From the NCBI GenBank assembly GCA_963729715.1, contig CAVSPA010000010.1, forward strand, positions 128,001 to 192,000: DNA of 64,000 nucleotides. Reading direction: 5' to 3'. Of this stretch, positions 1,368 to 4,208 are shown in pieces. The notes beneath the pieces were generated by a model, which saw only the letters and a list, made by a program, of their open reading frames with translations, did no database searches and was not told the origin of the DNA. A program made the position numbers and the translations under genes. Position 1 is the stretch's first letter. Each line of letters begins with the position of its first letter. The stretch comes from an uncultured delta proteobacterium. Its GTDB lineage: Bacteria > Desulfobacterota > Syntrophia > Syntrophales > UBA2185.

Positions 1368-1868
1368 TCATTCTTCGGATATCATTTCTTCCGATGCAAG
1401 CTGGATCTTTAATGCCCACTCCCTTATGAGATCCTCGATATTGTTTGGCAGTCGGTCCGGTGGGTCCTGATCCAGATACGGGCTCACCAGGTCCGCCCTC
1501 ACCAGCTCGTCGGCCTGGTTTCTCGGGAGCCCTCTCTCTTCCAGCTTGTACTCCGCGATCTCAGCCCTCTCTGCCACTCGGTCGAGCTCCTTTTCCAGCC
1601 TGTCATCCAGGAACATCCTCCACAAGTCTTTTGGCCCGTTGGCCAGAAGGTACTCCAGATGGTCGCTCCAGTACCGGCTGGCTTTCGGATTGTCCAATAT
1701 CTCTTCTGCTGCCTGTAACACCCTCTCTGTCTCTTTTGTCTTCCGTGGCTTCAACAAGCCCTTGCGCTTCAATCTCTCCAAGAATATCGGAGCCAACTTT
1801 TCCGCTACTCGCTTCGATTGCTGTGCGGTCAATTCCTTCTTCTTCGGCCTCGGGACATCCTTTTTCAT
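1368..1868 (-). CDS. Hypothetical protein with TnpV-like region
   Basis: HLEYLLANGPKDLWRMFLDDRLEKELDRVAERA...NQADELVRADLV resembles TnpV (hl.YL...p......L...L.....A...AeEiV..eli); basic N-terminus. Confidence 0.45.
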   Translation of the reverse strand: MKKDVPRPKKKELTAQQSKRVAEKLAPIFLERLKRKGLLKPRKTKETERVLQAAEEILDNPKASRYWSDHLEYLLANGPKDLWRMFLDDRLEKELDRVAERAEIAEYKLEERGLPRNQADELVRADLVSPYLDQDPPDRLPNNIEDLIREWALKIQLASEEMISEE

Positions 1869-1925
1869 GGGAGCACCCCTTCCGAATGGTAGAAATACTG
1901 TGTAAGGAAACGGTTTGGTTAAAGG

Positions 1926-2087
1926 TTACTTCTTGGATTTCTTATCTTGCCGATCGTATTTCTTGAGAAGGTCCTGGATGGCCTCTTCCAGGAGATCATT
2001 AAGAGGTTTTTCGAGGTCAATAGCGAGTTTTTTAATCTCCTTCTGGAGATCGTTTTCGATTCTTGTTGATAGGTTTTTTCGAGCCAT
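1926..2087 (-). CDS. Ribbon-helix-helix DNA-binding protein, 53 aa (below ORF-track cutoff)
   Basis: MARKNLSTRIENDLQKEIKKLAIDLEKPLNDLLEEAIQDLLKKYDRQDKKSKK: alternating beta strand followed by the typical RHH LLEEAI.DLLKKY helix. Confidence 0.85.
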   Translation of the reverse strand: MARKNLSTRIENDLQKEIKKLAIDLEKPLNDLLEEAIQDLLKKYDRQDKKSKK

Positions 2088-2115
2088 GACTGAAGGCTAT
2101 AGAATAATCTTGCAA

Positions 2116-2140
2116 AATGCAACAAGAAATATGTTGCATT
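2116..2140. promoter_or_regulatory. Inverted repeat, candidate operator between divergent element genes
   Basis: AATGCAACA-7 bp-TGTTGCATT perfect 9-bp arms, about 30 bp upstream of the RHH start. Confidence 0.5.
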
Positions 2141-2225
2141 GTTCATTATATCGTGCTATCTGTATATCATACTTTACAGATGTTCACTCTCCAGACCATA
2201 GACAAATGAATAGTAAGCAAACAGA

Positions 2226-2304
2226 TAAGCCTGAAGATACCCCATGTGGTGACGCATGGGGCGGGTAGTCTATGCCCGGGAGATGTCTTCAGGTTTAATT
2301 TTTT
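2226..2304 (+). ncRNA. Candidate C4/CI-type antisense RNA (three-stem junction)
   Basis: Outer stem 2227-2239/2284-2296; hairpin CCCCATGTG-GTGA-CGCATGGGG (GNRA loop); hairpin CGGGTA-GTCTA-TGCCCG; followed by a T-run; complementary sites at 2189-2203 and 2404-2418. Confidence 0.6.
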
Positions 2305-2322
2305 ATGAAAGGAGATGAGGAA

Positions 2323-2538
2323 ATGACAAAGGAAAAAACAATTAACAAAAGTGAAGGTGTCGAAGTCGATGCCACGGACAATCTAAATCGTTGTGCGTGG
2401 AAACTCCAGGGAATAGCCGGGTTGTTTTTTGACCAGCAGGACACAGGAAAGACTCTATCTCGAGATGAGGTGAATGGGATTTCATTTCTTCTCGATCAAA
2501 TCGCTGATGATATTCTGGAGAACACAGAAAAACTTTAA
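2323..2538 (+). CDS. Small hypothetical protein of the element
   Basis: ATG preceded by AAGGAGATGAGG RBS; 71-aa ORF. Confidence 0.6.
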   Translation: MTKEKTINKSEGVEVDATDNLNRCAWKLQGIAGLFFDQQDTGKTLSRDEVNGISFLLDQIADDILENTEKL

Positions 2539-2571
2539 CTCATCAACCGCGGAAAGGAGAGCAAGAGGACT

Positions 2572-2799
2572 ATGAAAAAAGTGACAAATATTTCTGAAGC
2601 TGTAGCGGAAGCAAAAAGGACAAAAATAGATCATCTTTTGGCTATGACAAGGGAAGTCCTGGAATCTGATAGTCAATTTTCTGAAATTCTGACCACAAAT
2701 ATCTTGTGCTGGAAAGAGACGGTAGATAATGAAAGACGAGTAAGAGCACTTGAGCTTAAAATGGGAATCGTTCCGGCCGCTCGGATTGTAAAAAAGTGA
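2572..2799 (+). CDS. Small hypothetical protein of the element
   Basis: RBS GAGG before ATG; 75 aa; same strand as neighbours. Confidence 0.6.
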   Translation: MKKVTNISEAVAEAKRTKIDHLLAMTREVLESDSQFSEILTTNILCWKETVDNERRVRALELKMGIVPAARIVKK

Positions 2800-2920
2800 A
2801 TCTGAATGGGGGCGGCGGGCAAGAACCGAGCGCGTCACGGGTTACGTGGCCGGCACGGAAAAGGACTCCCCTGGTCCCTGCCCGTGGCAGAACTCAGGAA
2901 GAAAGTGAGGGACTTTAATT

Positions 2921-4126
2921 ATGGGAACGATTTATAAGAGAGGCAAGATTTTATGGATCAAGTATCATCGTGCCGGCAAGCCATATTACGAGAGCACTAA
3001 GAGCTCAAAAGAGGCCAACGCAAGACGGCTCCTGAAAAGGCGAGAAGGTGAAATCGCAGACGGTAAATTGCCGGGAATTTATTTTGACAAGATCCTCTAT
3101 GACGAACTTGCCGCGGATCTCCTGAATGACTACGAACTCAACGGCCGGAAAAGTCTCAACCGATTGAAGATCAGCTTGGAGCATCTTGAGAAATCTTTCA
3201 CTGGATATCGCGTCGTGAATATCTCGACGGCCAGGATCAAGGCCTACATCGATCATCGACTTGAAGAGGGCGCGGCTCATGGGACAATTAACAGAGAGCT
3301 CGCCGCTTTGAAAAGAATGATGGTGATAGGCTCCCAGAGTACCCCGCCAAAAGTCAATCGCGTTCCGTTTCTTCCCATGTTGAAAGAGAGTAATGTACGG
3401 AAGGGATTTTTTGAGCATGGGGATTTTATCGCTCTAAGAAATTCCTTGCCGGCATACTTGGCAGGGCTTGTCACGTTTGCCTATAAAACAGGATGGAGGC
3501 TGTCGGAGATAACCGGGTTGACATGGGATCGGGTTGATCTCGATAACGGAATAGTAACCCTGAATCCGGGGGAAACGAAAAACGATCAAGGCCGGACGGT
3601 TTACCTTGATGAAGAATTGCGGAAGACGTTCGTGGCGCTATTGGAAAGCCGGAAGAAAGGCTCCTCTGTTCTGCCCCAGGTATTTTTGAATGAGGACGGA
3701 AAGGATTGCGTGAAGAGATTTGACAAGGCATGGGCCTCGGCATGTATCAAAGCAGGTTTTTGGGCCTGGGGCGAAGATGGAAAGCACAAAATACCCACGA
3801 AGCTCTTTCACGATCTCAGGAGAACGGCTGTCAGGAACATGGTCAGGGCTGGAATACCTGAACGCGTTGCAATGATGATCTCAGGGCATAAAACAAGGTC
3901 AGTCTTTGACCGATACAACATCGTAAGTGATACCGATTTGAAAGAGGCTTCGAACCGTCAAAAGTTGTATCTTGAAAGCCAAACCGTTACAAAAACCGTT
4001 ACAGTCATGGATTTCGAGAGGGGAAAAGGAAACAAAGCAGTACCTAAGCCTGCGGAAATACTGGTGGGCCGTATGGGACTTGAACCCACGACCAACGGAT
4101 TAAAAGTCCGCTGCTCTACCAACTGA
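2921..4126 (+). CDS. Tyrosine recombinase / phage integrase
   Basis: N-terminal arm-binding region (GTIYKRGKILWIKY); catalytic residues TGWR, ETK, HDLRR, SGH, DRY all present. Confidence 0.95.
   Translation: MGTIYKRGKILWIKYHRAGKPYYESTKSSKEANARRLLKRREGEIADGKLPGIYFDKILYDELAADLLNDYELNGRKSLNRLKISLEHLEKSFTGYRVVNISTARIKAYIDHRLEEGAAHGTINRELAALKRMMVIGSQSTPPKVNRVPFLPMLKESNVRKGFFEHGDFIALRNSLPAYLAGLVTFAYKTGWRLSEITGLTWDRVDLDNGIVTLNPGETKNDQGRTVYLDEELRKTFVALLESRKKGSSVLPQVFLNEDGKDCVKRFDKAWASACIKAGFWAWGEDGKHKIPTKLFHDLRRTAVRNMVRAGIPERVAMMISGHKTRSVFDRYNIVSDTDLKEASNRQKLYLESQTVTKTVTVMDFERGKGNKAVPKPAEILVGRMGLEPTTNGLKVRCSTN
3981..4003 (+). repeat. Tandem 11-bp direct repeat, candidate integrase arm-type binding sites
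   Basis: AAACCGTTACA at 3981 and 3993, about 60 bp from the tRNA 3' end. Confidence 0.55.
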
Positions 4127-4137
4127 GCTAACGGCCC
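4062..4137 (-). tRNA. tRNA-Lys (anticodon UUU), integration target
   Basis: Reverse complement GGGCCGTTAGCTCAGTTGGTAGAGCAGCGGACTTTTAATCCGTTGGTCGTGGGTTCAAGTCCCATACGGCCCACCA: 76-nt cloverleaf with CCA end. Confidence 0.97.
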
Positions 4138-4208
4138 CACCCATGATATAATTTTTTAAGCTTGCCCTCTTACTAAGAAGACTCTTGAATTGTCAAGAAA
4201 AAAAGGGG

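Follow-up and report, generated by a model that had tools for sequence, protein, structure and literature searches.

A conserved three-way-junction RNA of the C4/c4-2 kind as a candidate translation-coupled attenuator of an island integrase operon

The window, which is the whole stretch of 64,000 nucleotides analysed here from an uncultured delta proteobacterium of the Syntrophales, encodes ahead of an integrase operon a three-way-junction RNA that is a real, conserved and uncatalogued switch, an offshoot of the C4/c4-2 kind with one target. As far as comparison of related loci can tell, this RNA binds the 5' end of the transcript from which it comes and, by keeping a very short leader gene from being translated, probably silences the integrase operon. 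We give a probability of about 0.58 to the reading in which an antisense RNA of the C4 clan has been rewired as a translation-coupled attenuator of the integrase operon of the island. The features on which this reading is built are collected in Table 1.

Table 1. Features of the leader and of the integrase operon, in positions of the window
Feature	Position	Strand	Remarks
Divergent ribbon-helix-helix (RHH; Arc/CopG-like) regulator, 53 aa	1926-2087	-	PHROG 3180 Arc-like repressor, E 6e-12
Inverted repeat, 9-bp	2116-2140	.	over probable -35 box
Probable sigma-70 promoter region	2134-2170	+	TTGCAT 2134-2139; -10 candidates 2157-2162 or 2165-2170; exact boxes uncertain
a-box (TCTCC)	2188-2192	+	target of junction GGAGA
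b-box (CATAGAC)	2197-2203	+	target of P3 loop; ends 2 nt 5' of leader AUG
Leader ORF, 20 codons (MNSKQ...WGG)	2206-2268	+	through 5' strand of P1 and P2
Three-way-junction RNA	2226-2297	+	P1 2226-2239/2284-2297, P2 2240-2261, P3 2262-2278
Recognition parts of the RNA	loop b' 2268-2272; junction a' 2279-2283	+
U-rich tract after P1	2295-2305	+	candidate intrinsic termination site
ORF1, 71 aa, no assigned function	2323-2538	+	holds the 2404-2418 site in WKLQG codons
ORF2, 75 aa, no assigned function	2572-2799	+	no Pfam or PHROG family match
Second structured RNA, int-alpA-like	2813-2887	+	5' of integrase
Tyrosine integrase, 401 aa	2921-4126	+	PF00589, E 8.5e-22; PHROG 1
att core, 49-bp	4061-4109	.	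in tRNA-Lys(TTT) (4062-4137, -)

The three-way junction followed by Ts, which the earlier note on this DNA had drawn from the letters of the window, is conserved with strong covariation. P1 comprises 14 bp when the terminal U-A and G-U pairs are counted, P2 has 9 bp capped by a GUGA (GNRA) loop, P3 has 6 bp capped by GUCUA, and the junction reads GGAGA; the whole folds at -43.3 kcal/mol (z -6.52), as well as none of 200 shuffles. Among 83 copies, aligned by fitting to the model of the family, 97.1% of cells are paired and two-sided changes are seen in 20 of the 24 pairs, which places pairing and covariation above 500 of 500 shuffles and all slid controls, and a MAFFT alignment of 15 copies gives 97.5% paired cells and eight pairs with two-sided changes. 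More than 100 loci make up the RNA family, the majority of them in genomes and metagenomes of the Desulfobacterota type. A first search model built from 15 copies found matches in 8 of 22 genomes of the taxonomic family, 24 of 151 of the order and 3 of 151 of the phylum, while a second model matched 27 of 151 class genomes, 8 of 151 genomes of the same phylum, 31 of 121 genomes from the order to which a Desulfatiglandales MAG belongs and 2 of 121 from the phylum of a MAG of Nitrospirota. The metagenomes were searched with a pattern of the RNA core from which the target was left out; it found 85 stretches and had no match in viral contigs, and blastn against phages and plasmids returned short chance matches only. 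The genome of the window (G000) carries a second copy of the module (L062; C6:128325-128465, minus strand) whose loop and target match imperfectly and whose downstream genes are broken; this copy is probably decaying. None of the Rfam models matches the RNA of the window, and our literature search, which covered few subscription papers, found no paper on the family; the supplement of PMC5737381 may bear on its novelty.

The upstream site (2188-2203) is a genuine target of the RNA, with which junction and loop co-vary. It is an exact bipartite complement, TCTCC facing the junction and CATAGAC facing the loop and the top of P3, just as the earlier note had observed for the GTCTA loop and the GGAGA junction, and the match lies far beyond chance because the 7.51 Mb that make up the genome on its two strands contain TCTCC-N6-TAGAC only three times, two of these occurrences being the RNA itself and the upstream site. 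Both 12/15 matches to the reverse complement of 2268-2282 that had been reported exist, and they are the sole such matches on the plus strand in 1500-4200. The comparison was extended to 75 loci less than 90% alike, obtained from 100 distinct cores by leaving out six that the parser passed over, copies with short flanks and redundant ones. Between loop plus junction and the upstream region of the same locus the duplex reaches -17.45 kcal/mol, compared with -12.62 +/- 0.34 after permutation (0 of 20000), kin loci counting as independent in this statistic, and a bipartite score of at least 10 is reached by 65 of the 75 cognate pairs vs 31.7% of foreign ones. The variable first base of the junction pairs with the last base of the a-box in 72 of 74 loci (G-C 36, T-A 27, G-T 9, unpaired 2). 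There are a dozen loop codes or more, every one of them with a target to match, and for the rare ones the cognate target comes out at or close to the top of the ranking. A held-out set of 43 loci (47 matches, one dropped and three redundant), used in a model-guided test, gives -15.74 for cognate and -10.30 +/- 0.45 for permuted pairs. Homologous leaders thus show both the structure and the covariation of loop and target that the earlier note had named as a check, the latter at the upstream site only. A tree that draws on stems, promoter and RHH gene together (65 of 71 loci) leaves only five supported independent pairs, too few to correct for kinship; 4.6 of them agree, with a median p of 0.06, and the RHH part seems to have been reshuffled relative to the RNA. 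Column-wise mutual information between target and loop, aligned separately, gave no clean signal, blurred as it is by register shifts.

What lies between promoter and junction suggests how such pairing might act. TTG-led -35/-10 pairs are found in 70 of the 75 loci and their -10 boxes end 7-30 nt 5' of the a-box, therefore the target would form the 5' end of the transcript; the generic promoter scan did not list the corresponding region of the window. The inverted repeat over the probable -35 box is a candidate operator of the RHH protein. The leader ORF at 2206 had escaped the earlier note, which also did not see that the divergent RHH gene belongs to the module as a constant component or that the RNA stands closer to c4-2 than to C4. 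An AUG adjoins the b-box in 64 of 75 loci, the target ending 0-4 nt before it, and the AT-rich linker, which varies from 17 to 35 nt (18-37 nt from b-box to P1 core), holds no in-frame stop in any of these 64 loci vs 30 of 64 in frame +2. The distance from AUG to the UGA in the stem is a multiple of three in only 1 of 61 loci, and leader ORFs run to at least 20 codons in all but one locus. Held-out loci behave alike (starts in 33 of 43; three in-frame stops vs 21 in the comparison frame). Neither the peptide nor the frame is conserved, two frames being used, as would be expected if the passage of the ribosome, and not its product, matters. Comparative frame constraints therefore point to a translated leader ORF that overlaps the terminator stem. 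The 8 nt 3' of the stem contain 6.45 T on average (75 loci).

The nearest catalogued relative of the RNA is c4-2 rather than C4. The C4 model (RF01695, cut-off 45 bits), which recovers its positive controls P1 and P4 at 68.8 and 74.9 bits, has no match on the window, on 40 homolog loci or at this place in the genome; the model of the window family and C4 do not match in either direction, and c4-a1b1 (RF03163) and isrK (RF01394) have no match on the window. The earlier suggestion that Rfam models of C4, c4-2 and c4-a1b1 might recognise the RNA was not borne out. For c4-2 (RF02944, clan CL00128; Weinberg 2017), which PMC5737381 takes to be a probable remote homolog of an RNA already known, the model (cut-off 41 bits) has no match in the genome of the window at E<=10, and 1 of 40 homolog loci scanned passes the cut-off (L216, 41.9 vs 41 bits), a locus matched by the window-family model at 57 bits. 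That model in turn scores 9 of 16 c4-2 loci at E<=1, weakly. The two orders that carry the window family also have c4-2 above its own cut-off, one in 1 of 151 genomes and the other in 5 of 121. Divergent members of the window family grade into c4-2 by the overlap of the two models, at low scores that could reflect shared shape. Both families have the three-way junction, the GNRA-capped P2, the P3 loop, the purine-rich junction, the trailing Us, the same 5' a/b target and a homologous first gene, with 52% identity over 50 aa between ORF1 and the gene that comes first at the c4-2 locus L238. From the graded model overlap and the shared first gene we favour common ancestry with c4-2/C4 (clan CL00128); the RNA of the window appears to function like a C4-clan RNA and is by score a member of neither C4 nor c4-2. 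Among the c4-2 loci (L228-L246 and L216), in a set of 15 (14 of the 21 found, plus L216) the co-varying a/b target stands at the 5' end of the transcript (-13.61 vs -9.88 +/- 0.60) and is followed in eight by a terminator-like hairpin and U-run lying between target and RNA, an arrangement seen in 0 of 75 loci of the window family. The latter has a longer P2, a conserved GAAGA/UCUUC P1, and a leader ORF with an unstructured linker in place of hairpin plus U-run; its divergent RHH gene has no evident counterpart in the c4-2 ORF lists, inspected by eye. The supplement of PMC5737381 may already report the c4-2 target.

The likeness to the C4 and CI RNAs that the earlier note had put forward extends to the topology and to the manner of recognition. 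As in P1/P7 C4 and P4 CI, the order runs P1, P2 with its tetraloop, P3 and junction, and the RNA is encoded in the leader of the operon that it would control, in a satellite-type element; as in P1 C4, the junction pairs with an upstream a-box and the P3 loop with the b-box that follows at a distance of a few bases. The differences are several. P1 measures 10-14 bp in the window family vs 17 in C4, and no CCA like the one that ends P1 at its 3' side in C4 lies 8 nt or less from the end of the stem in any of the 75 loci; a U-run stands there instead, and no sign of RNase P-type processing is seen. Target hairpins of the c4-a1b1/isrK type or an upstream terminator occur in 0 of 75 loci, a conserved downstream target (a2b2 or seqC in C4/CI) is absent, and the family precedes integrase operons whereas C4/CI control icd/ant or replication genes. 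The C4 structure, its processing by RNase P and the occlusion of ribosome-binding sites by the b' loop are described in PMC5320573, and c4 and c4-a1b1 appear in table rows and in the supplement of PMC2864571.

The integrase operon announced by the earlier note downstream of the RNA is a recurrent, though not a constant, neighbour. An integrase follows in 44 of 75 loci (30 within 200 nt), in four clusters below 40% identity; none is seen in 31 of 75, many with short DNA, and in 13 of the 41 loci with at least 1200 nt, which counts against the attenuator reading. Other first genes across the homolog loci encode DUF932, RadC and small unknown ORFs. A Syntrophales MAG has an integrase 78% identical to that of the window behind a leader of the same type. 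The RHH-like gene is divergent in 69 of 75 loci, and the Pfam RHH match of the gene in the window falls below cut-off. ORF1 has no Pfam or PHROG match and ORF2 no match to a Pfam or PHROG family; an atlas lead (0.87) to a derepressor like epsilon of P4 for ORF1 was not confirmed by Pfam or profile comparison. The second structured RNA shares 73% identity over 81 nt with the int-alpA (RF02996) match of locus L083, and Rfam does not detect it itself. The 3' side of this RNA (GTCCCT) could pair with the Shine-Dalgarno region of the integrase. Downstream of the leader RNA, int-alpA also occurs in L080, L083 and L216, and below cut-off in L210; elsewhere in the genome of the window an int-alpA RNA passes the Rfam cut-off at 58.2 bits (L179; C4:410414-410482, minus strand).

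The att core has its twin at C10:118258-118306, which bounds a 13.8-kb island whose genes include a replication initiator, a DnaB helicase and a small terminase; no capsid or large terminase was seen among the island ORFs examined, and we infer that the island may be a phage satellite of the PICI-like type. The end of the integrase ORF (3900-4126) extends into the att core, therefore its C-terminus would depend on the state of integration. A second att copy marks another, 17.5-kb island in tandem at the same tRNA-Lys (C10:100764-118306) in which a truncated integrase, an IS3-like pair and a RelE/HigA-like pair can be recognised by eye. Two long low-complexity ORFs (393 and 512 aa; C10:122865-125596, plus strand) lie 5' of the small terminase, have no PHROG match and resemble DNA-injection proteins in composition only.

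From the fold, the a/b pairing, the open leader frame, the U-run and the gene context, all of which can be read in the aligned loci, we propose the following course of events. Transcription would start just 5' of the a/b target. As long as the cell contains none of this RNA, a ribosome would load on the leader AUG, enter P1/P2 and keep P1 open, and polymerase would run on past the Us to transcribe ORF1, ORF2 and the integrase. On transcripts that escape translation the junction would fold and the transcript would end at the U-run, and the short terminated RNA, whole or trimmed in the A-rich linker, would accumulate. Through its junction and P3 loop this RNA might then pair with the 5' ends of new transcripts, covering about -18 to -3 of the AUG, in which case the leader would stay untranslated and termination would be enforced. 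The outcome would be a burst of integrase on arrival of the island followed by self-silencing, and the loop codes would decide which islands silence one another; termination, action in trans, repression as the sign, timing and immunity are thus what the proposal would add. In trp/pyr-type attenuators, the ribosome on a short ORF determines whether the stem and U-run form. The window family resembles them in its short leader ORF, stem and U-run, and differs from them in having neither regulatory codons nor a conserved peptide and in its proposed input, an antisense RNA generated by the terminator itself. A comparable case is IsrK of Gifsy-1, described as a short terminated isoform whose target in trans is the read-through isoform made from that same locus (PMC4825925).

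The attenuator reading is favoured because the fold, the covariation with the target (75 plus 43 held-out loci), the leader frame, the U-run and the integrase downstream come together, and because topology and the order of a before b match P1 C4, whose b' loop occludes ribosome-binding sites. Among the facts that argue against it, 11 of 75 loci have no AUG beside the located target, several of them with full pairing (L033, L121, L101, L122, L111 and L136), and the leader AUG has no canonical Shine-Dalgarno, the b-box being too close to it. Covariation cannot separate pairing in cis from pairing in trans, and a cis pseudoknot looks sterically possible. Rather unlikely in our opinion, a purely cis-acting kinetic switch, in which the 5' target pairs with its own loop and junction as P3 emerges and thereby closes the window for leader initiation, would involve neither diffusible repressor nor immunity; it would suit a target and an antisense carried 18-37 nt apart (b-box to P1 core) on one short transcript, a single conserved target, and co-resident copies that can share a code, as do the four of one genome (G032: L026, L043, L048 and L050), which also fit poorly with a change of code driven by avoiding cross-talk between residents. 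The many distinct codes speak against it, as does the terminator-like hairpin of the sister c4-2 loci, since an RNA lying beyond that hairpin could act there only in trans, and P1 c4 is described as trans-acting (PMC8546580). A trans-acting antisense RNA that works through decay, processing or Rho, and not through intrinsic termination at P1, appears less probable still. The U-run would then be no more than the end of the RNA, as it may be since c4-2 loci also have one after P1, and the leader ORF would protect the message; the pairing kept in AUG-less loci agrees with this, whereas the open frame kept specifically into P1, with the stem UGA avoided, and a 15-35 nt linker that would be short for a Rho site do not. 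P4 CI, which causes premature termination at separate sites (PMC4825925), lends it some credit.

Less probable than either is an activating switch in the manner of IsrK, in which the 5' target would sequester the downstream Shine-Dalgarno in the read-through RNA until the short RNA frees it. The read-through fold of the window does pair the target with the U-run/Shine-Dalgarno region, and IsrK activates translation of its own long isoform in trans (PMC4825925). However, target-to-Shine-Dalgarno pairing is no better for cognate (-7.60) than for foreign (-8.05) pairs across 71 loci (p 0.98), never beats the pairing with the loop, and leaves the Shine-Dalgarno paired above 0.5 in 20 of 71, so that this comparison rejects it as a conserved geometry; nor does isrK match. 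We hold it just as improbable that the RNA also binds 2404-2418 in ORF1, in the way C4 binds a2b2 and CI binds seqC, although the earlier note had made this site a second target. The site exists, a 12/15 match expected 0.005 times per 300 nt for a fixed 15-mer with a duplex of -15.1 kcal/mol, but it is weak and not conserved, and a second target is not supported: 37 of 396 control tiles contain a 12/15 match to some 15-mer of the RNA, and the best downstream sites of the 66 loci with enough DNA score -15.75 for cognate, -15.52 for foreign and -15.57 for reverse-strand comparisons. A downstream bipartite scan (300 and 1200 nt) gives no signal (8.29 vs 8.28 and 8.55), the site of the window itself scoring 8, the background mean, and 41 held-out loci likewise show no downstream target signal. 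The site sits 80 nt inside ORF1 on codons of the conserved WKLQG motif, the first of which are identical in L238, whose RNA carries a different code and pairs there at -6.2 only. Two distant members (L219 and L220, genome G517) have near-identical copies of the target upstream and directly over the downstream Shine-Dalgarno, a two-target layout as known in P1 and P4; the layout is thus present in the wider group and not in the subfamily of the window.

Going back to the attenuator reading, it is tempting to extend it, with somewhat less than even confidence, to the family as a whole: one structure of 70 nt would serve as terminator and, once released, as a trans repressor that blocks the very leader ribosome that melts the terminator, would travel as a cassette of RHH gene, promoter, leader and RNA across at least four integrase clades, and would define by its loop code cross-silencing groups among the satellite islands of anaerobic deltaproteobacteria. 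With this finding, RNA control of the C4 type reaches beyond a few phages of enterobacteria: syntrophic and sulfate-reducing bacteria harbour a widespread and uncatalogued family of it, with integrase expression as its suggested output. The c4-2 RNA gains a concrete and testable target, and the terminator hairpin of c4-2 vs the leader ORF of the window family would represent two outputs of one antisense scaffold. Finally, the dozen natural loop/target codes held in so compact a module may provide a ready set of orthogonal RNA attenuators.
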